Below are positions 16,146 through 62,451 of a stretch of 64,000 bases of DNA, piece after piece; position 1 is the first letter of the stretch; each line of letters starts with the position of its first letter. The notes under the pieces were generated by a model. It ran no database searches and was not told where the DNA came from. It saw nothing but the letters and a program-made list of their open reading frames with translations. A program made the position numbers and the translations under genes. The DNA is from Burkholderiales bacterium (GTDB lineage Bacteria; Pseudomonadota; Gammaproteobacteria; Burkholderiales; Ga0077523). Location of the stretch: assembly GCA_022843925.1 (NCBI GenBank), contig JALHMS010000001.1, forward strand, positions 144,294 through 208,293, written 5' to 3'.

Positions 16146-16687
16146 CGACCGGCTGCTCCAGCTGGCAGGGGCGGCAGCGGCGCGAGCGACTTCGACATGA
16201 TGTGGTCGTCCATCACGAAGCCGTTGCCGATGTCGAACACCGCGGAATCGGTGATCTCGAAGCCGTGCTTGCGATAGGCGCCGATGGCCGAGGCATTGTT
16301 CTTGTTCACCTGGAGATAGAGTCTGTGGCATCCGAGGGATCGTGCCTCCTGTTCCACGTGCTGGAGGAGGATGCCGCCGTGACCCCGACCGCGCTCGCTG
16401 TAGCGGATGTAGAGCTTGTCGATCTTCAGCTCCCCCGGAGCGGTACCGAGCTCGTACTGCACGAACCCCGTCAGGATGCCGTCGCAATGAAGGGTGTCCC
16501 ACCACACACCCTCCTGCGATAGCTGGGCGAGGATCGTCGCCGGCGCGTAGCGCTGGGCGAGCATGTAGTCGATCTGCGGCTGACCGATGATACTCGCGTA
16601 GTGGTGCTGCCAGGTGTCGCGGGTCAGCGCGACGAGGGCATCGATCTCCCCGGCGCGCAGCGGCCCGATCTGCAGATCATCACGCAT
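16142..16687 (-). CDS. GNAT family N-acetyltransferase
   Basis: 181 aa with [10 protein letters not shown] (acetyl-CoA Q/RxxGxG/A motif) and [10 protein letters not shown]. The stop overlaps the dapF start by 4 nt. Confidence 0.8.
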
Positions 16688-16799
16688 GCATTGTCCTCCT
16701 CGTGTCCTCGATGGCTCCTGGTCCTGCCGTGTCGTCTCCGGCCCTGGAGAAGCGGCCGGAGACGGGTCTTCGCCCTGCGAACCCGCGGCCCCGGCGATA

Positions 16800-17672
16800 T
16801 CAATACACGCGGGAGGCGCCCTCGGGCCGGGTCTTGAAGCGCTTGTGCAGCCACAGATACTGCTCCGGCATCTCGAGGACGCGCGCCTCGATGAAGGCAT
16901 TCATGCGCCGGGTGTCGTCTTCCACGCTGTCGCCGGGATAATTGTCCCATGCCGGATAGGCGCGGATCACGTACCCATCGCCGCCGGGCAACTGGCGGAT
17001 CACGACCGGCACGATGGGCGCCCGGGTGAGACGGGCGATGCGCGAGAGCGCGGTGACCGTCGCGGCCTGCACGCCGAAGAACGGGACGAAGATGGAATCG
17101 CGGGCGCCGAGATCCATGTCGGGCGAGAGCTGCAGGGAATAGCCGTCACGGTAGCCCCGCAGGATCGACTTCACGCCCTCGTTGCGGGCGATGAGCTTCG
17201 CCCCGTTGAACCGCGAACGCACCCGCAGCAGGAACTCGTCGAAGAACCGGTTCTTCTGATGGGCGTAGACGGCGATGCCCCGGTATTCGAGGGTGAGCCG
17301 GATGCCTTCCAGGTCCAGGGCCGCGAAGTGCGGCACGAGGAGGATGAAGCGGCCGTCGGCGGGGACGTGATGCCAGTCCTCCAGACGCACCACGCTGCGA
17401 AGCCGCGCCTCCGACCCGAACCACGCGATGGACGATTCGAGCAGCGCGCGACCGAAGCACTGGAAGTGGCGCCGTGCCACCGACTCGCGTTCCGCGTCGC
17501 TCCAATGGGGGAAGCACAGCGCGAGGTTCGTACGCACGACGTGACGCCGCTCGCGAGACAGCAGGAAGAGGATCGCCCCGAGGCCGCGGCCCATCGGCGC
17601 CAGCACCGACAGCGGCAGGTGGTGCATCAGGCGGAAGATCCCGAGGAGGGCGCGCAGGGGGAGATCGGTCAT
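16800..17672 (-). CDS. Lipid A biosynthesis (Kdo2-lipid IVA) acyltransferase, LpxL/LpxM family
   Basis: LLVPHFAALD (H-x4-D acyltransferase motif) and C-terminal PEQYLWLHKRFK, typical of HtrB/MsbB. Confidence 0.85.
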   Translation of the reverse strand: MTDLPLRALLGIFRLMHHLPLSVLAPMGRGLGAILFLLSRERRHVVRTNLALCFPHWSDAERESVARRHFQCFGRALLESSIAWFGSEARLRSVVRLEDWHHVPADGRFILLVPHFAALDLEGIRLTLEYRGIAVYAHQKNRFFDEFLLRVRSRFNGAKLIARNEGVKSILRGYRDGYSLQLSPDMDLGARDSIFVPFFGVQAATVTALSRIARLTRAPIVPVVIRQLPGGDGYVIRAYPAWDNYPGDSVEDDTRRMNAFIEARVLEMPEQYLWLHKRFKTRPEGASRVY

Positions 17673-18535
17673 GCCGCTTCCTGGGGACGGGGAGGCGCCC
17701 GGCGCGGGGCCTTGTAGCGGTTGTAGCTCCAGAGATACTGCTCCGGGCAGAGCCGGACGACGCGTTCGACAGCCGCGTTGAGCATGGCCACCCCGTCGGG
17801 CGCCGCCAGATCGGCGTCGAGTGCCTCCAGGGACAGAACGAATCCGGCGCCCTTGGGAAGTCGTCGCGCGAATGCGAGCAGCACGACGCAATCCGTGGCC
17901 TTCTGCAGTCGACCGACCAGGGTCATCGTGAATGCGGGGCGCCCGAAGAATGGGGCCCAGGCCCCCTCACCGACGCCCGGTACCTGGTCGGGAAGCAGGC
18001 CCACGGCCTCGCCTGCGCGCAGGGCCTTCAAGAGCCGACGCACACCTGTGAGATTGGTCGGCGCGAGGGTCCCCAGACCGCCCGTGCGGCCCGCGCGGAG
18101 CAATGGTTCGAGCCAGGCGAGCTTCGGGGGGCGGTACAGGATGGTGATCGGCACTCTGCGCGCGGCGTGGAGCGCGGCGATCTCGAAGCAGCCGATGTGG
18201 GGTGTGAGGAACAGGACACCGCGACCGGCTGCGCGGGCGGCATCGACGAGTTCCCAGCCGTGGACGGCACGCATGAGCGCATCGGCCCGCTCGGGCGGAC
18301 GGAACCAGACGGCGGCGAGTTCGAACGCGCCCTTGCCGAGTTCGGCCACGACACGGCGGCGCATCCGGGCAAGATCTGCCGGGTCGCGCGCCACAGCGCT
18401 CGCTTCGAGGTTCTCGGACAGACGCCGCGCGTAGCGGGGCGAAATCAGGTACACGAGCCAGCCCGCCATCGCACCGAGCCCGTGGAGCCAGCGCAGGGGT
18501 AGCTGCGCCAGAGCGCGCAGCAGGAGTGCAAGCAT
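17669..18535 (-). CDS. Second LpxL/LpxM-family lipid A acyltransferase paralogue
   Basis: [10 protein letters not shown] (H-x4-E/D variant) and [12 protein letters not shown]. The stop overlaps the next gene's start by 4 nt. The start is trimmed to MLALLLRAL (ATG 18535). Confidence 0.8.
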
Positions 18536-18620
18536 CGGGGATTTCTTGTCGTCTTCGGGTCGGGCAGGGATTCTGCTAACCTCGCACGCTACCCATTCCA
18601 AACGCGCGAAGGCCAGTGAC

Positions 18621-19778
18621 ATGAGCGAGTTTCTCTTCACCTCGGAGTCCGTGTCCGAGGGCCATCCGGACAAGGTTGCAGATCAGATTTCCGATGCGGT
18701 GCTGGATGCGATCTTAGCCCAGGACCGCTTCTCCCGCGTCGCCGCCGAGACGCTCGTGAACACCGGGCTCGTGGTCATGGCCGGCGAGATCACGACGAAC
18801 GCGGTCGTCGACTATCAGCAGGTGGCGCGCGACACCATCAAGCGCATCGGCTACGACAACACCGATTACGGCATCGACTACCGCGGTTGTGCGGTGCTCG
18901 TGGCCTACGACAAGCAGTCTCCCGACATCGCCCAGGGCGTGAACGAAGGTCAGGGCCTCGACCTCGACCAGGGCGCCGGCGACCAGGGCCTCATGTTCGG
19001 CTACGCCTGCGACGAGACGCCGCAACTGATGCCTATGGCCATCCACCTCTCGCACAGGCTCGTGGAGCGTCAATCCGAACTTCGCCGGGACGGCCGACTG
19101 CCGTGGCTGCGGCCGGACGCGAAGTCGCAGGTCACCGTCCGGTACGTGGACGGCCGCCCCGACTCGATCGACACGGTGGTGCTCTCGACGCAGCACGCCC
19201 CCGAGATGACGCACAAGCAGATCGAGGAGGCCGTCATCGAGCAGATCGTGAAGCCGGTGCTGCCGAAGGAACTGATGAAGGGCGAGGTGCGCTATCTCAT
19301 CAACCCGACCGGCAAGTTCGTGATCGGCGGCCCGCAGGGCGACTGCGGCCTGACCGGTCGCAAGATCATCGTCGACACCTACGGCGGCTCGGCCCCGCAC
19401 GGCGGTGGTGCCTTCTCGGGCAAGGACCCCTCCAAGGTCGACCGCTCCGCCGCCTATGCCGCGCGCTACGTGGCGAAGAACATCGTCGGCGCGGGTCTCG
19501 CCTCGAAGTGCCTCGTGCAGGTGTCGTACGCGATCGGTATCGCGAAGCCGACCAGCATCATGGTGACGACCTACGGCACGGGCAAGGTGTCGGACGAGAA
19601 ACTTGCGGAACTGGTGAAGCAGCACTTCGACCTGCGTCCGAAGGGCATCGTGCAGATGCTCGATCTGCTGCGCCCGATCTACCAGAAGACCGCCGCCTAC
19701 GGCCATTTCGGCCGCGAAGAGCCGGAGTTCACCTGGGAAGCGCTCGACAAGGCCGCCGCGCTGAAAGCGTCGGCCTGA
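18621..19778 (+). CDS. metK: S-adenosylmethionine synthetase
   Basis: [57 protein letters not shown]. Confidence 0.97.
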
Positions 19779-19867: not shown

Positions 19868-21163
19868 TCAGCGGGTACCGGTCTTCCGGGCCGGGCCCGA
19901 ACCACCTTCGCGGCGACCTTCGAAGCGCGAACCGCCGGGGCGGCCGTGACGCTGCGGGCCGGGGCGGGCGGGCGAGGCCGCGCGCTGGGTCGGCTCCAGA
20001 CCTTCGATCACCGCGACCGGGATGCGCTGGTCGGTGAAGCGTTCGATGGTGCGGATCTTCCGGATCTCGGCGTGCTCGGCCAGGGTGACGGCGATGCCCG
20101 TGCGACCGGCGCGGCCCGTGCGACCGATGCGGTGGACGTAGTCCTCGGCAGCGATCGGCAGACCGTAGTTGATGACGTGGCTGATAGTCGGAACATCGAT
20201 CCCGCGAGCAGCGACGTCGGTGGCGACCAGCACGCGCAGGCGACCCTGCCGCAGGCTCGTCAGCGTTCGGGTACGGATGCTCTGGGGCATGCCACCGTGG
20301 AGCGCTGCGACCGCATGACCGTCGGCTTCCAGCTGCTCGGCGACGCGCTCGGCATCCCGCTGGGTCGCCGTGAACACGATCGCCTGGTCGATCGTCGGAT
20401 CGGCCAGGAGCCGGTCGAGCAGACGATCCTTGTGGGAACGGCCGTCGGCCCAATGCAGGCGCTGCGTGATGTGGTCCTGGCGCTCGCGGGAGGACTCGAG
20501 TTCGACTCGCTGGGGTTCGTTCATCAGGTTCGCAGCGAGCTTCGCCACGGTGCCGTCGAGCGTGGCGGAGAAGAGCAGCGTCTGGCGGGTCTTCGGCGTC
20601 GCTGCTGCGATGGCTTCGATGTCTTCGATGAAGCCCATGTCGAGCATCCGATCGGCTTCATCCAGCACCAGCACTTCGACGCGGGAGAGCGAAAGCCGAC
20701 CGCCGTTCAGCAGGTCGAGTAGGCGGCCGGGCGTCGCGATCAACACATCGAGCGGGGCGCGCACGGCACGGAGCTGAGCGCCGTAGGGCACCCCGCCAAC
20801 CACGGAGGCAGTGCGCAGCCAGCGAAGCGAACGGCCGTAGGTTTCACAGGCACGGGTCACCTGGAGCGACAGCTCGCGGGTGGGCGTGAGCACGAGGATG
20901 CTGGGCCCGGCGCCGGCGACGGCGCGTACATCGCGGGTCACGAGGCGGTGCAGGGAGGGCAGGAGGAAGGCGGCCGTCTTGCCGCTGCCCGTGGCGGACG
21001 ACACCATGAGATCGGTGCCGGCGATGGCCTTGGGAATGGCGGCGCTCTGCACGGGCGTGGGTTCCGTGTAACCGGAGACCGCAACAGCCTGGACGAGGGA
21101 ATCATGAAGGCCGAGCGCTGCAAAGCCTTCGGCACCGGCGATGGCCGGGGCGGAATCAGTCAT
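19868..21163 (-). CDS. rhlE: DEAD-box ATP-dependent RNA helicase (RhlE-like)
   Basis: Q-motif TEPTPVQ, ATGSGKTAAF, VLDEADRMLDMGF (DEAD), SAT, HRIGRTGRAG, and an RG-rich C-terminal tail. The start is set at MTDSAPAI (ATG 21163). Confidence 0.9.
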   Translation of the reverse strand: MTDSAPAIAGAEGFAALGLHDSLVQAVAVSGYTEPTPVQSAAIPKAIAGTDLMVSSATGSGKTAAFLLPSLHRLVTRDVRAVAGAGPSILVLTPTRELSLQVTRACETYGRSLRWLRTASVVGGVPYGAQLRAVRAPLDVLIATPGRLLDLLNGGRLSLSRVEVLVLDEADRMLDMGFIEDIEAIAAATPKTRQTLLFSATLDGTVAKLAANLMNEPQRVELESSRERQDHITQRLHWADGRSHKDRLLDRLLADPTIDQAIVFTATQRDAERVAEQLEADGHAVAALHGGMPQSIRTRTLTSLRQGRLRVLVATDVAARGIDVPTISHVINYGLPIAAEDYVHRIGRTGRAGRTGIAVTLAEHAEIRKIRTIERFTDQRIPVAVIEGLEPTQRAASPARPGPQRHGRPGGSRFEGRREGGSGPARKTGTR

Positions 21164-21612
21164 GTACTTCTCCAATGCATCGGGTGCGTGCCGTCCTGAA
21201 GGGACGAGGCACCTCGGGTGAGTCGCGGTCTTCGCGACGGCATCGCCGCCAACCACGATCTCCCGATGCATATCCGGGAACGAGAAGTCAGAGCCGATGA
21301 GGAATGCGCGCTTCGCTGTCCCGTACTGCGGGACAGACCATCTGTCACTGCAGGACTGCAAACGCGAGCCGCGCAAGATACACCGGCTTGTGCGCCGCAG
21401 CAACCAGAATCTCCCGGCAGCGAGGTTCGGGGCCGTGGAGAACACCGCCGGACCCGGGCGCCCCGTGACGCCCGATCGGTTACGGGGAATTCCTGCACCG
21501 ACCACTCAGGATCACGGACCGGACAACCGTTACCGAGGATCCTTGCTCCCGGGCCGGCGAGGGGTCGGCGCCCGTGGGCTAGAATTCACCCCTTTTCGTC
21601 AAGGAGACAAGC

Positions 21613-22623
21613 ATGCCCATCCGCGTCGCCATCAACGGCTATGGCCGTATCGGTCGCAACATCCTCCGTGCCCTCTACGAGTCCGGCCGGAACGGCGAGA
21701 TCCAGATCGTGGCGATCAACGACCTCGGCAGCCCCGAGACCAACGCCCACCTCACCCGCTACGACACCGCCCACGGCAAGTTCCAGGGCAAGGTCGAGGT
21801 GACGTCCGATGGCATGCTCGTGAATGGCGAATCGATCAAGGTGTTCGCGGAGCGGGACCCGGCCAAGCTGCCGTGGAAGTCGCTCGATGTGGACGTCGTC
21901 ATGGAATGCACCGGCATCTTCACCAGCAAGGACCGCGCGGCCGCCCATCTGGCCGGCGGCGCCCGCAAGGTCATCATCTCCGCCCCGGGCAAGGACGTCG
22001 ACGCGACCATCGTGTACGGCGTGAACCACAACACGCTGAAAGCCAGCCACACCGTCATCTCCAACGCGTCCTGCACGACCAACTGCCTCGCCCCGCTGGT
22101 CAAGCCCCTGCACGAGAAGATCGGTGTCACGTGCGGACTGATGACCACGATCCATTCCTACACCAACGACCAGGTGCTCACCGACGTGTATCACGAGGAC
22201 CTCCGCCGCGCGCGGTCGGCCACGATGTCGATGATCCCCACGAAGACCGGCGCCGCCGCCGCCGTGGGCCTCGTCCTCCCGGAACTGAACGGCAAGCTCG
22301 ACGGCTACGCGATGCGCGTCCCGACGATCAACGTGTCGATCGTCGACCTCTCGTTCATCGCTGCGCGCCCGACGACCGCCGAGGAGATCAACGCGATCAT
22401 GAAGGCCGCCGCCGAAGGCGAACTGAAGGGCATCCTCGGCTACACGAAGGAACCGCTCGTGTCCGTGGACTACAACCACGATCCGCGTTCGTCCGTCTTC
22501 GACGCCACCCTGACGAAGGTCTCGGAAGGCACCCTGGTGAAAGTCTCCTCCTGGTATGACAATGAGTGGGGCTTCAGCAATCGCATGTTGGACACGGCAG
22601 TCGCCTTCGTGAACGCGAAGTAG
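21613..22623 (+). CDS. gap: Glyceraldehyde-3-phosphate dehydrogenase, type I
   Basis: [22 protein letters not shown] (catalytic Cys), [21 protein letters not shown] Shine-Dalgarno 6 nt upstream of the ATG. Confidence 0.97.
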
Positions 22624-23059
22624 AGAGACAATCGGTGCCCCACTCATTTCGGCGGAGGCTGACCTCGGCACGAGCCGAGGTTAAGCGAAGCGGCCGCAGC
22701 CACAATGAGTGGGGCTTCAGCAATCGCATGTTGGACACGGCAGTCGCCTTCGTGAACGCGAAGTAGAGAGACAATCGGTGCCCCACTCATTTCGGCGGAG
22801 GCTGACCTCGGCACGAGCCGAGGTTAAGCGAAGCGGCCGCAGCCACAATGAGTGGGGCTTCAGCAATCGCATGTTGGACACGGCAGTCGCCTTCGTGAAC
22901 GCGAAGTAGAGAGACAATCGGTGCCCCACTCATTTCGGCGGAGGCTGACCTCGGCACGAGCCGTGGTTAAGCGAAGCGGCCGCAGCCACAATGAGTGGGG
23001 CTTCAGCAATCGCATGTTGGACACGGCAGTCGCCTTCGTGAACGCGAAGTAGAAAGACA
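22559..23059 (+). repeat. 143-bp tandem repeat, about 3.5 units, each re-copying the last 21 codons of gap (including TAG) plus about 80 nt of non-coding sequence
   Basis: AATGAGTGGGGCTTCAGC starts at 22561, 22704, 22847 and 22990, a period of exactly 143. Units are identical apart from A->T at 22964 and G->A at 23054. Copy 1 is the true 3' end of gap. Confidence 0.95.
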
Positions 23060-23062
23060 CGG

Positions 23063-23092
23063 CAACCGCTCGCCGGACGGCGACGGTTGTTC
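23063..23092 (+). terminator. Possible weak terminator/attenuator hairpin after the repeat array
   Basis: CAACCG(C)TCGCC-GGAC-GGCGACGGTTG followed by TTCC. The stem is 11 bp with one bulge and the U-tract is poor. Confidence 0.35.
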
Positions 23093-23279
23093 CCGGAACG
23101 GCGTGGGTCGGGCTACGGCCCGACGCTCACGGTGACGACACCGTTGACGCATCGACCATCCACCGCACCTGCAATCGAATTTTCCCGGCATCCGTGCCGG
23201 CAAGACCCTGGCGGGGCCCGACGCAACCGACGACGGGCCCCGCTTCCTTTCCACCTCACCCTGCTCGAACACCACCACC

Positions 23280-24467
23280 ATGGCGATCCTGCGACTCACC
23301 GATCTCGACGTGCGCGGCAAGCGCGTGCTCATCCGGTCCGACCTGAACGTGCCCCAGGACGACACCGGCCGCATCACCGAGGACACCCGGATCCGTGCTT
23401 CGGTCGGCGCCGTCCGCGCCGCACTCGACCAGGGCGCCCGGGTGATGGTGACCTCCCACCTCGGTCGCCCCACGGAGGGAACGCTGGCCCCCGCCGATAC
23501 GCTCGAGCCCGTGGCAGCACGGCTGGCCGAGCTGCTGGGACAACCGGTGCCGCTGGTGCGGGACTGGGTGGACGGTCGCGAAGTGGCGCCGGGCGCCGGT
23601 CAGGTCGTGATGCTCGAGAACTGCCGGGTGAACGTCGGCGAGAAGAAGAACGACGAGGACCTCTCGAAGCGCATGGCTGCGCTCTGTGACGTCTACGTGA
23701 ACGACGCCTTCGCGACGGCCCATCGCGCCGAGGCGACGACCCATGGCATCGCGCGCTTCGCCCCGGTCGCGTGCGCGGGGCCCCTGATGGCCGCGGAGAT
23801 CGAGGCACTCGGCAAGGCGCTCGGCAATCCGGCCCGCCCGCTGGTCGCGATCGTCGGCGGCTCGAAGGTCTCCACCAAGCTCACGATCCTCTCGGCCCTC
23901 GCGGCGAAGGTCGATCAACTCGTGGTGGGTGGCGGCATCGCCAACACGTTCATGGTCGCCGCCGGCCTGTCCGTCGGGAAGTCGCTGGTCGAGGCCGACC
24001 TCGTGCCCGAGGCGAAGAAGATCATCGATGCCGCCGCCGCCCGCGGTGCGTCGGTGCCGATACCCGTGGATGTCGTGGTGGCGAAGGCGTTCGCGCCCGA
24101 CGCCGTCGCGACGATCAAGGCTGCCACCGACGTCGCCGACGACGACATGATCCTCGACGTCGGCCCGAAGACGGCCGCCGCCCTGGTCGAGGCCCTTGGG
24201 CTTGCCGGGACGATCGTATGGAATGGTCCGGTCGGCGTGTTCGAGTTCGATCAGTTCGGCGAGGGCACGAAGGCCATCGCCGGCGCCATCGGCGCATCGA
24301 AGGCCTTCACGCTGGCGGGCGGCGGTGACACCATCGCGGCCATATCCAAGTACGACATCACCGACAAGCTGTCCTACATCTCCACCGCGGGCGGCGCCTT
24401 CCTCGAGTTCCTCGAGGGGCGCAAGCTCCCGGCCATCGAGATCCTGGAATCCCGCGCCGCCGGCTGA
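23280..24467 (+). CDS. pgk: Phosphoglycerate kinase
   Basis: [38 protein letters not shown]-like C-terminus. Confidence 0.97.
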
Positions 24468-61290: not shown

Positions 61291-62451
61291 CTACGCGGAC
61301 TTGGCCTCGTGTTCGGGGGCGTCGGCAAAGCGCTCGGCGATTTCGAGGAACCTGCCCCGGATCTCGAAGAAGGCATCGGCCAATCCCGGGTCGAAATGCG
61401 TGCCCCGCTCGCGCATGATCATGTGCACCGCATCGTCGTGGGAGTACGCCGGCTTGTAGACCCGCCGGGAGATCAGGGCGTCGTAGACATCGGCGATGGC
61501 CATGATCCGCGCGGACAGCGGGATCGCGTCCCCCACGAGGCCGTCCGGGTAGCCGGTACCGTCCCAGCGCTCGTGATGGCTCGTCGCGATCTCCCGGGCG
61601 TGGCGTAGGAACGAATCGCCGGCGACCACGAGATCCGCCTCCGCCTGCAGGATGGCATCGCGCCCGAGCACGGTGTGCTGCTTCATCACTTCCCATTCCT
61701 CCCGGTCGAGCTTGCCGGGCTTCAGCAGTACGGCGTCCGGAATGGCCACCTTGCCGACATCGTGCAACGGCGCGGATTTGAAGAGGAGATCGATCGTCTC
61801 GGCGGTGAGTTCGCTACGGTAGGGTTCGCGATCGCGAACCTGCTCGGCGAGCGCACGCACGTAGTGCTGGGTCCGCCGGATGTGGTTGCCGGTCTCGTAG
61901 TCGCGCGCTTCGGCGAGCGAGCAGAACGCGCTGATCGTGGCGTCCTGCGCCGCGATCAACTGCTGCTTCCGACGGACCAGCTCCGCCGCCTGTTCGAGGA
62001 TGTGGCGCGTGCGCTCGGATACCAGTCGCTCGAGGTCCTCGTTGCGGGTACGAAGCAGCCGCGCGCTCTGACTGAGCCGCAGATGATTCCGGACCCGCGC
62101 GAAGACGACGGCCGGCGAGAACGGCTTGTGGATGAAGTCCTCGGCCCCGAGCGACAGGCCGCGCTCTTCGTCGACCGCACTGGAGAGCGTCGTGAGGAAG
62201 ATGACCGGGATGTCACGAGTGCCCGGGTCCTGCTTGAGCGCACGACACACTTCGAACCCGTCCAGGCCGGGCATCATCACGTCGAGAAGAATCAGGTCGG
62301 CGGCGCCGCCGTCGCCCAGATAAGCGAGCGCGGCGTGTCCCCCGTCGAGGGAGTGCACGACGTGGCTCTCGCCGAGGAGGTCTTCGAGGATGAGCAGGTT
62401 GTCCGGCTGATCGTCGACGATGAGGATGTGGGCGCGATCGGGTTCCGTCAC
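61291..62451 (-). CDS. Two-component response regulator with an HD-GYP domain (RpfG-like c-di-GMP phosphodiesterase)
   Basis: REC domain (ILIVDDQPDN, DLILLDVMMPGLDG, HKP). HD-GYP domain (LHDVGKVAIPD, HHERWDGTGYPDGL). Confidence 0.9.
   Translation of the reverse strand: MTEPDRAHILIVDDQPDNLLILEDLLGESHVVHSLDGGHAALAYLGDGGAADLILLDVMMPGLDGFEVCRALKQDPGTRDIPVIFLTTLSSAVDEERGLSLGAEDFIHKPFSPAVVFARVRNHLRLSQSARLLRTRNEDLERLVSERTRHILEQAAELVRRKQQLIAAQDATISAFCSLAEARDYETGNHIRRTQHYVRALAEQVRDREPYRSELTAETIDLLFKSAPLHDVGKVAIPDAVLLKPGKLDREEWEVMKQHTVLGRDAILQAEADLVVAGDSFLRHAREIATSHHERWDGTGYPDGLVGDAIPLSARIMAIADVYDALISRRVYKPAYSHDDAVHMIMRERGTHFDPGLADAFFEIRGRFLEIAERFADAPEHEAKSA

Follow-up and report, generated by a model that had tools for sequence, protein, structure and literature searches.

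Why is the end of gap copied repeatedly ahead of pgk in this genome? Between these two genes, the 64-kb stretch of DNA that we analysed (the window) carries a single tandem array at 22559-23059, to which Tandem Repeats Finder assigned a period of 143, 3.5 copies, 99% matches, 0 indels and a score of 988; the runner-up array in the window scored 70. A repeat search of the window recovered three in-register 215-nt copies (identity 100/100/99%), and reading of the sequence placed AATGAGTGGGGC at start positions 22561, 22704, 22847 and 22990. The three approaches agree on the array, and its only two substitutions are A>T at 22964 and G>A at 23054, both as given in a sequence-only reading of this DNA. 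Each 143-nt unit re-copies the last 20 gap codons plus TAG, and the array ends in a partial unit (22992-23059) followed by unique sequence. As that reading had stated, gap itself uses only copy 1. We refer to the repeated gene end as S and to the 75-nt insert between S repeats (22631-22705), which is without an ORF of its own, as Y. The array is present as assembled, its copies marked apart by the two unit-specific substitutions. A copy number inflated by assembly, with a single S-Y-S in the true genome, is very improbable: short reads do not readily resolve the number of near-identical 143-bp units, and exact-protein look-ups of the window's Gap and Pgk found no sister assembly on record, but assemblers usually collapse such repeats rather than expand them, the substitutions at 22964 and 23054 distinguish individual copies, and two or three units occupy the same site in independent assemblies of other taxa.

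The gap–pgk spacer measures 656 nt, since gap ends at 22623 and pgk begins at 23280, in line with the previous figure of about 650 nt. Subtracting 3 x 143 nt leaves 227 nt, which aligns with the 210-nt gap–pgk spacer of L001, the closest array-free relative (Gap identity 90%); L001 also has a hairpin 3′ of the gap stop codon, at the place equivalent to the native hairpin that follows the array. Y does not occur elsewhere in the window or in the homologous L001 spacer. A terminator and promoter scan found no terminator-like or promoter-like sites within the unit, and GC skew was too weak to place the locus on the leading or the lagging strand. A feature missed earlier is that the non-gap part of the unit forms an imperfect palindrome, the left arm of which, GCCCCACTCATT (22637-22648), matches the reverse complement of the NEWG codons of gap exactly. 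With a probability of roughly 0.6, we read the array as a composite insertion in which a small structured, non-coding element is present at its target in gap as three units joined head to tail. Each unit would comprise a copy of the gap end S beginning directly after GACAA, a 13-nt arm that is antisense to the start of S, and a core of ~56 nt (Table 1).

Table 1. Features of the gap–pgk region, in window coordinates
Feature	Position	Strand	Details
gap (GAPDH) CDS	21613..22623	+	ORF; Pfam Gp_dh_N and Gp_dh_C; last 21 codons inside repeat copy 1
Target pentanucleotide GACAA, codons Asp-Asn of WYDNEWG	22558..22562	+	Unit boundary after 22562
S copy 1, functional	22563..22630	+	TGAGTGGGGC...AAG TAG plus 7 nt; first 10 nt are T, the arm's partner
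Filler, 6 nt	22631-22636	+	Between S copy 1 and the arm of element 1
Element 1, 5′ arm GCCCCACTCATTT	22637..22649	+	Antisense to gap codons N-E-W-G; 12/12 complementary to 22561-22572
Element 1, conserved core	22650..22705	+	Pattern match; covariance-model match 22638-22714, 60.3 bits
Unit 2	22706..22848	+	S copy 2 22706-22773, arm 22780-22792, core 22793-22848; covariance-model match 22781-22857, 60.3 bits
Unit 3	22849..22991	+	S copy 3, arm 22923-22935, core 22936-22991; covariance-model match 22924-23000, 54.8 bits
Terminal S copy (D copy)	22992..23059	+	Untranslated as gap; G>A at 23054; joins native downstream sequence
Native hairpin CAACCGCTCGCC GGAC GGCGACGGTTG	23063..23089	+	Just 3′ of the terminal gene-end copy; sequence reading and alignment
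pgk CDS, next same-strand gene	23280..24467	+	ORF; Pfam PGK

In element 1, the core runs CGGCG-G-AGGCTGAC, hairpin 1, GTTAAG, hairpin 2, GGCCG-C-AGCCACAA. The paired positions gave a covariation score of 0.234, compared with 0.080 in shuffles (0 of 500 reached 0.234) and at most 0.074 with slid partners. One hairpin-1 pair occurs as CG 34, UA 31, AU 19 and GC 16, and copies outside the search pattern carry GGT/ACC, GAC/GTC and AGT/ACT swaps in both GGC/GCC helices. In hairpin 1, G.T pairs outnumber A.C pairs by 21 to 2, which identifies the sense strand as the one that folds. These comparisons show covarying helices through which the ~56-nt core, ending in CCACAA, would fold into a three-way junction on the sense strand. 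The ~73-nt non-gap part of the repeat, previously described as non-coding, is thus not filler but belongs to this element, and the A>T change at 22964 breaks one hairpin 1 pair in unit 3. We do not favour a self-cleaving ribozyme as an explanation, as the joining point falls inside a helix, which would be unusual, and few unpaired bases are conserved.

We recognised the core motif by reading in two further loci, L010 and L017. An exact 27-mer of the window's element had no metagenome match; the element is too diverged for exact search, and a degenerate pattern was therefore needed. That pattern matched at least 120 metagenome contigs and 2 viral contigs (3 viral contigs when relaxed), bearing out the earlier suggestion that the non-gap part might be a dispersed element. 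The metagenome sampling pattern fixed many core positions, including CCACAA, so the invariance of core positions is partly ascertainment. In the fetched loci, covariance model R1 made 168 matches at E ≤ 0.001, nearly all of 28-77 bits; on the window it scored the three copies at 60.3, 60.3 and 54.8 bits and the next best match in 64 kb (61926-61964) at 18.5 bits, which we rejected as ordinary coding sequence. The core also lies at 5′ ends, beside tRNA and rnpB copies, inside ORFs and on a phage contig, and multiple matches within a locus are all on one strand. Among 78 reference gap loci, 2 have the element and 76 do not, including L001, the window's closest relative. A search of Rfam 15 at E ≤ 1 returned nothing on the element for positions 21000-24000 of the window and nine loci holding ~20 copies. 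Two family members had no match among PLSDB plasmids and INPHARED phages by BLAST, which is insensitive to a 60-nt motif with variable stems, and literature searches found no description of such an element. The MRSC-65-2 repeat is a single long stem and not the present motif (Narunsky et al. 2024; PMC11109978). The element family is widespread and, apparently, undescribed.

A layout that recurs in the family is the gene up to GACAA, the gene end S, a locus-specific 5′ arm antisense to the start of S, the core ending in CCACAA, and a second S. Both gene-end copies begin directly after ACAA: among the unique junctions, 29 have this start in both copies, the gene reads GACAA at 26 of the 29, and the codon phase at the junction is the same in 26 of 27. 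As judged from the compared loci, family members lie directly 3′ of G(A/T)CAA in conserved genes and are oriented as the gene. Recurrent same-strand upstream genes are gap, proB, smpB, glmS, nrdA, an aminotransferase gene, TauD, dnaJ and metK; further recurrent hosts are the 5′ end of hslU, tRNA-Ser and rnpB. A flank duplication was detectable at 84 loci, diverged and variable in length (15-90 nt), and the junction-to-stop-codon distance is 13-79 nt. When the site falls in the last 13-79 nt of an essential gene, the gene segment is found on both sides of the element, and likewise when it falls in the first part of hslU, tRNA-Ser or rnpB; one intact gene is therefore left. The array had been described as a coding-sequence-derived VNTR. 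It is not simply that, being driven by the non-gap part, a conserved structured element that recurs at numerous genes and in numerous genomes; on these sequence comparisons, re-copying of the gene end follows, across the family, from the element's position at its target.

Differences between the upstream (U) and downstream (D) gene-end copies number 41, 30 and 222 at codon positions 1, 2 and 3, respectively (pN/pS 0.09). Being mostly at third positions, they indicate that the copies diverged while each was a working gene end. Gene-body GC3 correlates with that of the D copy (r = 0.56) but not with that of the U copy (r = -0.10). Between gap loci, upstream gene-end copies showed no excess likeness to one another over gene bodies (residual 0.003); correlating U-U and D-D identities with body identity was uninformative as to a foreign copy, and the copy nearer to element-free relatives was in some cases U and in others D. 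The coding parts of U and D are identical in the window, which thus gives no sign of import, and the codon usage of segment X there is marginally atypical (lowest 5% of windows). Synonymous-only U/D divergence could also come from homologous recombination with element-free strains refreshing either copy.

A filled and an empty site were found at one pair of loci, where L085 carries a 75-nt in-frame insertion and L083, ~92% identical to it, has GACAA|C at that exact position. This pair lacks a duplicated gene segment, with A(C/A)AAC alone recurring at both junctions. The alignment indicates that the element can also occur as a bare insertion of ~75 nt. In addition, one 5′ module, CACGCCGC-N4-GCGGCTTGTTK, accompanies the core at three places, namely hslU, a gene starting MNLALFDLDN and the gene common to L083 and L085. 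No mobilising gene recurs near the element in ~120 contigs, where the recurrent neighbours are only syntenic housekeeping genes and large paralogous families and include no transposase, integrase, reverse transcriptase or RAYT (Y1 transposase). Around the array itself, ten ORFs scanned with Pfam were housekeeping genes or a TonB-dependent receptor, consistent with the earlier statement that neither a transposase nor a reverse transcriptase is present. The genes identified by scanning there include metK, a DEAD-box helicase gene, gap, pgk, pyk, purE, purK, purC and a Sua5/TsaC-like gene. An integrase-type island once seated in the 3′ end of gap, leaving att-like gene ends and a scar that was later amplified, would follow the same logic as islands that target tRNA genes, tmRNA genes and gene ends, with duplicated gene ends flanking foreign DNA and a functional end that may be imported. 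This origin is extremely unlikely: the supposed scar is a conserved covarying module at many genes without an adjoining island or integrase, its arm is antisense to the gene, unlike att sites, the bare 75-nt insertion exists, and a full island bounded by core and gap repeats was seen in 0 of 19 gap-associated loci.

Arrays of two or three units of like design occur 3′ of gap in independent assemblies of other organisms (L010, L088, L017 and L172). L010 has two cores and L088 three, at a gap identity of 94.7% between them, so copy number does vary between related genomes. L017 and L172 have in common a 3-unit array of the same unusual form at a gap identity of 85%, which fits long vertical persistence of the array and possibly a host function. 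In the window, the near-identity of the three units points to recent amplification, one of the options proposed before. A further remark, that the array has no unique spacers, holds here and fails elsewhere, with units of differing arms at L094, L119 and L137. Ordinary recent tandem duplication (a VNTR) by slippage or unequal crossing-over, with the palindrome incidental, would fit units that are 99-100% identical with 0 indels, and 72-nt direct repeats are a good substrate for unequal exchange, making an increase from one to three units fully explicable. Moreover, internal units of the L010 and L017 arrays were evidently copied as blocks, because a disrupted pairing partner is common to them. 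However, simple duplication yields integer units, and the 3.5-copy (S-Y)3-S needs a prior S-Y-S; Y is found neither in the relative's spacer nor elsewhere in the window, although over 120 unrelated contigs carry elements homologous to it. As Y is non-local and S-Y-S must pre-exist, duplication accounts for the copy number only and not for the origin, and as a full explanation of the locus it is decidedly unlikely.

The insertion reading also draws on pairing between the arm and its target. Scored against its own 3′ flank, the arm reached 5.95 of 11 positions, compared with 4.22 of 11 (sd 0.14) against the flanks of other loci, with weak arm–flank pairing in many family members. At 10 of 11 gap loci, the arm matches the host's synonymous choices at AAY and GAR, with all four codon combinations represented; each target has its own outer arm, which matches the gene there. 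At L087, L144 and L198, only the 10-nt pairing partner is left after the core, the rest of the duplicate having been lost. The core could alternatively be a host cis-acting RNA module in 3′ UTRs or intercistronic regions, co-transcribed and not mobile, whose arm pairs with the end of the coding region and sets mRNA decay, processing or the gap:pgk ratio, with slow spread by recombination and duplication by slippage. Such a module would account for a structure selected on the sense strand and always in the orientation of the upstream gene, for arm–gene pairing kept through synonymous changes, for the three loci that keep just the 10-nt partner (which suggests selection on the closing helix), for the persistence of arrays across the 85%-identical gap genes of L017 and L172, and for the high stability of the array RNA (predicted -264 kcal/mol for 571 nt, z = -6.1). 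We consider it unlikely, although less so than the alternatives above, given that the same core lies 3′ of unrelated genes, at 5′ ends, by tRNA and rnpB, in ORFs and on a phage contig, that 76 of 78 reference gap loci, including that of the window's closest relative, have no element, that a filled and empty site exists (L085/L083), and that one arm lineage occurs at three unrelated genes. A regulatory role would also leave the gene-end duplication unexplained.

As already claimed from the sequence, no standard category fits: VNTR, REP, MITE, integron, diversity-generating retroelement, CRISPR, island and Rfam families each have defining features that this locus lacks. A simple VNTR agrees with the head-to-tail units, but the unit has relatives elsewhere (at least 120 metagenome contigs, 3 viral contigs, L010 and L017). 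We rejected a MITE for want of constant terminal inverted repeats, the outer arms being different at every target, and of a short target-site duplication of fixed length, the flank duplication being variable and diverged over 15-90 nt. A REP was rejected for the lack of a conserved GTAG head, the lack of inverted pairs and the three-way-junction fold, and an integron cassette or attC site because the GGCTAAC and GTTAAGC boxes are confined to the inner hairpin, at the base of hairpin 1, and junctions follow ACAA. A diversity-generating retroelement does not agree with identical copies in the window, family differences at third codon positions and no reverse transcriptase in the ten scanned ORFs; nor does a CRISPR array with units identical throughout and no cas gene among those ORFs.

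Several known systems nevertheless share parts of the design. Like IS200/IS605 elements, PATEs and REP/REPIN sequences with their RAYTs, the element is small, strand-specific and defined by structure rather than sequence. As in these systems, insertion is 3′ of a fixed short motif with no classical target duplication, here GACAA at 26 of 29 junctions and the filled and empty site at GACAA|C. Again as in these systems, a short guide segment beside a hairpin would help define the cleavage or joining site, and the element is proposed to be, like them, non-autonomous, with an enzyme in trans and clusters possible. Unlike IS200/IS605, which has subterminal hairpins at both ends, it has one three-way-junction module per unit and, at its other end, gene sequence or a lineage-specific short hairpin. 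A further difference lies in its arm, which spans up to 12 nt, varies with the locus and can form Watson-Crick pairs with the flank, and its gene-end duplication has no counterpart in these systems. The GTAG (or CGTC) head of REP, BIME and REPIN sequences is lacking, its position being the variable N of CGGCG-N-AGG and GGCCG-N-AGCC, as are their inverted doublets, with within-locus copies all on the same strand.

Islands at the ends of tRNA, tmRNA and other genes, and Tn7 at glmS, likewise choose an extremely conserved gene-end sequence. In these systems, the gene is kept intact by a supplied or duplicated end and repeats flank the insert, much as in S-Y-S, and glmS, smpB-region and tRNA targets recur between the two; the element differs in its insert of ~70-90 nt with no protein gene (no integrase), its antisense arm and its tandem arrays. 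Integron attC sites are, like the element, folded single-strand sites of conserved shape and variable sequence, and integron cassettes, like its units, are promoterless, of one orientation and able to be arrayed. The GGCTAAC...GTTAAGC pair at the base of hairpin 1 resembles the attC R''/R' boxes (R'' RYYYAAC, R' GTTRRRY), but these boxes are terminal in attC and internal in the element, and the crossover is at G|TT in attC whereas the element's junction comes after ACAA. Cassettes carry an independent ORF, whereas the element's units carry a fragment of the neighbouring gene, and no intI or attI was found among the genes scanned around the array.

Group II introns and R2 elements, too, are co-oriented and probably co-transcribed with a conserved host gene, with element–target base-pairing beside the junction, conserved-site homing and possible tandem copies. 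In R2 elements, a 5′ ribozyme processes the co-transcript with host rRNA. The present element is Rfam-negative for a ribozyme or intron, its core is too small for group I or II and its junction lies within a helix; unlike in retroelements, no reverse transcriptase was found in the ten ORFs by the array or in the ~120-contig neighbourhoods. Finally, MIRU-type VNTRs resemble the array in being 50-150 bp tandem repeats that separate co-transcribed genes, reach into the end of the preceding ORF and vary in copy number between relatives, but MIRU units have no dispersed covarying three-way junction and no target-antisense arm, and do not sit at one codon motif of many genes.

Our best reading is that of a small non-autonomous, guide-bearing insertion element, reiterated three times at gap. 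Such an element would move as a single-stranded intermediate, either ssDNA or RNA, and its arm plus TTG may pair with the target CAA plus T, fixing the joining point after ACAA. The moving unit would bring the gene end along, so that insertion would not be lethal, and every insertion would regenerate ACAA|T at both junctions. Array growth could have come about through re-insertion, through more than one turn on a circular template or through unequal crossing-over of the S copies (72 nt), with the enzyme presumably supplied in trans. In the mRNA, the three units would lengthen the gap–pgk interval by 429 nt of highly stable structure. More tentatively, and at slightly worse than even odds, the family may represent an undescribed class of guide-bearing, protein-less mobile elements with a ~60-nt three-way-junction core and a programmable arm. 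Members of this class would be directed to G-ACAA sites where stable-RNA genes and highly conserved genes end, and would bring along a substitute for the gene segment that they cut off. Since every insertion would restore the target, tandem arrays would build up. The reaction might rely on a trans-acting single-strand nuclease or recombinase, or on the RNA itself together with reverse transcription.

If this explanation is true, a compact element of ~70 nt, with a target seemingly set by a short arm that can be read from sequence, inserts into essential genes without killing them, which would be a new solution to mobile DNA's safe-site problem and a candidate programmable insertion system. It would make testable whether a small RNA or ssDNA structure directs site-specific joining, and by which enzyme, and whether such arrays alter operon stoichiometry, for example of gap and pgk. 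For annotation, duplicated gene ends give rise to spurious small ORFs and possibly to misassemblies. More broadly, the element would account for unexplained tandem repeats and ghost gene ends beside housekeeping genes in Burkholderiales-like genomes and metagenomes.

Tandem Repeats Finder reported one strong array in the window, with a period of 143, 3.5 copies, 99% matches, no indels and a score of 988. The sequence-only reading had described this array, and its register (unit starts at 22561, 22704, 22847 and 22990), its two substitutions (T at 22964 and A at 23054) and its partial last unit, after which unique sequence follows, were all recovered by repeat search and reading of the sequence. 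ORF and Pfam analysis bore out that gap contains just the first repeat copy. The closest available relative, a Burkholderiales MAG (L001; 90% Gap identity), lacks the repeat, and its 210-nt gap-pgk spacer can be aligned with the terminal gene-end copy of the window and the 227-nt stretch downstream, so that the array, as assembled, is a net insertion of 3 x 143 = 429 nt. With S denoting the re-copied gene end and Y the non-gap part of the unit, the array has the form (S-Y)3-S; plain duplication of S and downstream sequence cannot yield this form, which requires a preceding S-Y-S state, so simple duplication would account for copy number but not for origin. Amplification in the window is recent; T, the first 10 nt of S, is intact in all copies, and the units are nearly identical.

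Coordinates of the array, its surroundings and selected comparison loci
Feature	Sequence	Positions	Basis or remark
ORF of 367 aa	window	16614-17714	
metK	window	18546-19778	
Leader match 5' of gap	window	21506-21601	Rfam, sub-threshold
gap	window	21613-22623	ORF and Pfam
143-nt array	window	22559-23059	Tandem Repeats Finder
GCCCCACTCATT, left end of Y	window	22637-22648	
Three 66-aa ORFs	window	22566-22766, 22709-22909, 22852-23052	
Hairpin 3' of terminal gene-end copy	window	23063-23089	sequence reading; taken to be native
13-nt inverted repeat	window	23211-23243	
pgk	window	23280-24467	ORF and Pfam
Filled/empty pair	L083 vs L085	6465-6741 vs core 881-933	L085 on reverse strand
ORF with in-frame copy	L202	8874-9536	
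Copies after several genes	L126	10572-10721, 12567-12774	
Oxalobacteraceae-type variant	L017	5027-5400	

The non-gap part, which the sequence-only reading had described as non-coding sequence, has features of its own: it is palindromic, carries an arm antisense to gap and belongs to a family. Read on the opposite strand, GCCCCACTCATT matches without a mismatch the gap codons N-E-W-G that stand at the start of each repeat, and from GCCCCACTCATT up to the next gap copy the sequence forms an imperfect palindrome of 79 nt that includes an inner hairpin (-30.3 kcal/mol as single-stranded DNA, z = -6.0). The entire array folds as RNA at -264 kcal/mol (z = -6.1), and its three units lengthen the gap-pgk interval by 429 nt of stable structure. 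A scan of the repeat unit showed no terminator-like or promoter-like site, and a 67-mer of the non-gap part had no other occurrence in the window.

A weak local BLAST match led to a Gammaproteobacteria MAG (L010; 77% Gap identity) whose gap-pgk spacer holds re-copied gap ends with a related element between them, its motifs conserved and its inner hairpin different in sequence but compensating. Among 80 reference gap loci screened for a repeated 3' end, one further case came up, an Oxalobacteraceae genome (L017) with a period of 151. A degenerate pattern derived from these three sequences, for which we roughly estimate about one chance match, matched at least 120 metagenome contigs and 2 viral contigs, and a relaxed pattern matched a third viral contig; the non-gap part is therefore a dispersed element, the possibility that the sequence-only reading had proposed to check. 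The covariance model of the element, R1, scored the window copies at 60.3, 60.3 and 54.8 bits; the best other score in the 64 kb was 18.5 bits, a match to ordinary coding sequence that we rejected. At E<=0.001, R1 gave 168 matches in the fetched loci (for the metagenome, loci among the matches listed), and of 78 reference gap loci it found only L010 and L017. The pattern required CCACAA and further core bases, so the metagenome sample under-represents other junction motifs; other core 3' ends do occur, GCCAAAG at tRNA and rnpB loci and CCACAT in L203. The reference matches, together with neighbourhoods rich in Bug/TctC genes, point to Burkholderiales and relatives as hosts.

Several forms of the family were seen. 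In the metagenome contigs L126, L161 and L093, copies follow two or three genes 1-3 kb apart, so the element is abundant in some genomes, like REP; L126 also has an array of 78-nt period that is nearly all cores. An Oxalobacteraceae-type variant (L017, L172, L184), common to genomes with 85% gap identity, has a minimal core of 38-39 nt without hairpin 2 and an extra 32-nt segment, TCGAGAGCCGCGTTAGCGGCAATTGATTATCAG, between core and re-copied gap end, giving a period of 151-152.

On the element strand, the consensus reads variable 5' arm, TTG, CGGCG-N-AGGCTAAC, hairpin 1, GTTAAG, hairpin 2, GGCCG-N-AGCCACAA and variable 3' flank. RNAalifold and pair counting on 105 sequences supported three parts of the fold: hairpin 1, a closing helix, and a pair of GGC/GCC helices flanking a symmetric G-N-A/G-N-A internal loop. 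The covariation score was 0.234, compared with 0.080 for shuffles (0/500 reached 0.234) and at most 0.074 for slid partners. As many core positions were fixed by the search pattern, we examined copies found by the covariance model alone; these retain G-N-A/G-N-A and TTG...CAA and show compensatory swaps (GGT/ACC, GAC/GTC, AGT/ACT) in the seemingly invariant helices. Hairpin 1 has 21 G.T pairs versus 2 A.C pairs, so selection acts on the sense-strand fold, whether of the RNA or of that strand of the DNA.

Among the matches listed, the gene directly upstream lies on the same strand and comes from a recurrent set: gap (16 clustered loci), proB (11), smpB (8), glmS (8), nrdA (7), an aminotransferase gene (5), a TauD-family gene (4), dnaJ and metK, all nine families confirmed by Pfam. 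Further upstream hosts are, by our reading of the sequence, presumably panC, rpoD, ftsW, rpoA and typA. In at least 84 loci, the sequence 3' of the core, the conserved part ending in CCACAA, is a second copy of that preceding the element, giving the layout gene...GACAA / S (through the stop codon and a few bases) / arm / core...CCACAA / S. Among the matches listed, both copies start exactly at ACAA at 29 unique junctions, the gene reads GACAA at 26 of these 29, the codon phase is GAC AAN (Asp, then Asn or Lys) in 26/27, and the site lies 13-79 nt (median 34) from the stop codon. At hslU, tRNA-Ser(GGA) and rnpB the 5' gene part is duplicated instead and the downstream copy is intact; one complete gene is left at every locus.

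The arm matches its own locus. It pairs with its own 3' flank at 5.95/11 positions versus 4.22/11 with the flanks of other loci (sd 0.14), and in 10 of 11 gap loci its complement equals the host CAAYGARTGGGG, including both synonymous sites; all four codon combinations occur among these arms. It agrees with the upstream, functional gene-end copy, not with the downstream copy, whose first bases are often disrupted (L010, L017, L088, L104).

At the stable-RNA loci, the element stands after the anticodon GGA of tRNA-Ser GGA (L108, L188) or after GAGGA of the RNase P RNA P4 region at rnpB (L109, L199), with a truncated 5' gene copy upstream and the intact gene downstream; a second core there ends in GCCAAAG, which agrees with the target GGAAAG, rather than in GCCACAA. 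Other copies lie within ORFs (L083, L085, L148, L202), where the core is an open frame (...RRRLT...VKRSGRSHN...) that is read through, adding ~23-25 residues; one of these is in a phage-contig ORF, and the host gene of one we take, from its sequence, to be hsdM-like.

The distribution of the element is patchy: L001 and 76 of the 78 reference gap loci lack it, and the gap genes that bear it are mutually just 68-85% identical. Core number varies, with 2 in L010 and 3 in L088 at 94.7% gap identity, and 3 each in L017 and L172 at 85%. One gene, presumably HlyD-like from its sequence, is present in L083 and L085 at ~92% identity and provides a filled/empty site pair: L085 has a 75-nt in-frame insertion, consisting of a 21-nt 5' module and the core, at the point between GCCACGG and ACAACACT in L083, that is, GACAA/C. 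A different element copy lies ~190 nt upstream of the empty site in L083. The module CACGCCGC-N4-GCGGCTTGTTK plus core represents one arm lineage at unrelated sites: it follows GACAA both at hslU (L163, L197) and in a gene that begins MNLALFDLDN (L176), and in the L083 gene it follows GTCAA. In the element neighbourhoods among the matches listed, no transposase, integrase or reverse transcriptase recurred; the genes that do recur there are either syntenic housekeeping genes or members of large paralogous families (TctC/Bug receptors, histidine kinases).

Across 45 loci, the two gene-end copies differ at 41/30/222 sites in codon positions 1/2/3 (pN/pS 0.09), which indicates that they diverged in separate lineages, each serving as a working gene end, before being joined. 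Gene-body GC3 follows the downstream copy (r = 0.56) and shows no such relation to the upstream copy (r = -0.10), being nearer to the former in 15 loci and to the latter in 8; this suggests, and only suggests, that upstream copy and arm are the incoming part. Three more tests of origin in gap loci gave mixed results or no information, and either copy could have been refreshed by homologous recombination with element-free strains. In the window, the repeat-borne gap end uses codons rare in gap, pgk and pyk (TTG is 0/62 Leu codons in gap and pgk; AAT, AGC and GCA are likewise rare) and scores in the lowest 5% of 21-codon windows, a marginal hint that it was imported; as its coding part is the same in all four copies, the original gap end may have been overwritten.

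The window array lies among metK, a DEAD-box helicase gene, gap, pgk, pyk, purE, purK, purC and a Sua5/TsaC-like gene. metK, 3 kb 5' of gap, has no element copy here and is a recurrent host in other contigs (L145, L160, L178). The inverted repeat GCGGGGCCCGACG / CGACGGGCCCCGC, ~40 nt 5' of the pgk start, has a related hairpin, GGCGGGGCC...GGCCCCG, at the matching place in L001 and may be a conserved intercistronic structure. The gap leader matches the BjrC68 sRNA at 18.4 bits (gathering score 39), probably by chance. The 367-aa ORF, for which Pfam gave nothing at E<=1e-5, is possibly not a true gene, and the 66-aa ORFs, each of which reads from a core through to the gap-end copy after it, there in the frame of gap, are probably not genes.

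The family thus presents a sense-strand fold, a fixed G-ACAA junction, an antisense arm, gene-preserving duplication, bare insertions and tandem arrays. We infer that the element moves as a single strand: TTG and the arm would pair with CAA and T of the target, and joining would follow ACAA. The moving unit would run from one ACAA junction to the next and at a gene end would include S. The same pairing could set the unit boundary within the gene as well as that at the core end, which would explain S in the moving unit without a second structured end. Selection would retain only insertions that leave an essential gene intact, which would explain why sites are confined to the last 13-79 nt or else to the first gene part plus promoter. 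Alternatively, the element could be co-transcribed with its host gene, processed at ACAA and reverse transcribed; we rank this RNA route below single-strand transposition because of the position of the junction inside a helix and the lack of an associated reverse transcriptase. After single-strand insertion the target ACAA/T would stand at both junctions, so that arrays could grow by re-insertion, by multi-turn copying of a circular unit or by unequal exchange between S copies, any of which could have built the window array.

Small structured repeats are well known in bacteria. The closest working analogy would combine the single-strand, guide-assisted 'peel and paste' transposition of IS200/IS605 and REP/RAYT with the safe-site logic of gene-end-restoring islands; tests of membership placed the element in none of these groups. 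Rfam 15 gave no match, plasmid and phage BLAST, which is insensitive here, gave none, and a search of open-access literature text found no description of the motif or layout. We know of no repeat in which the gene end is duplicated and selectively intact, the junction is fixed at GACAA and a locus-specific arm is antisense to the neighbouring gene.
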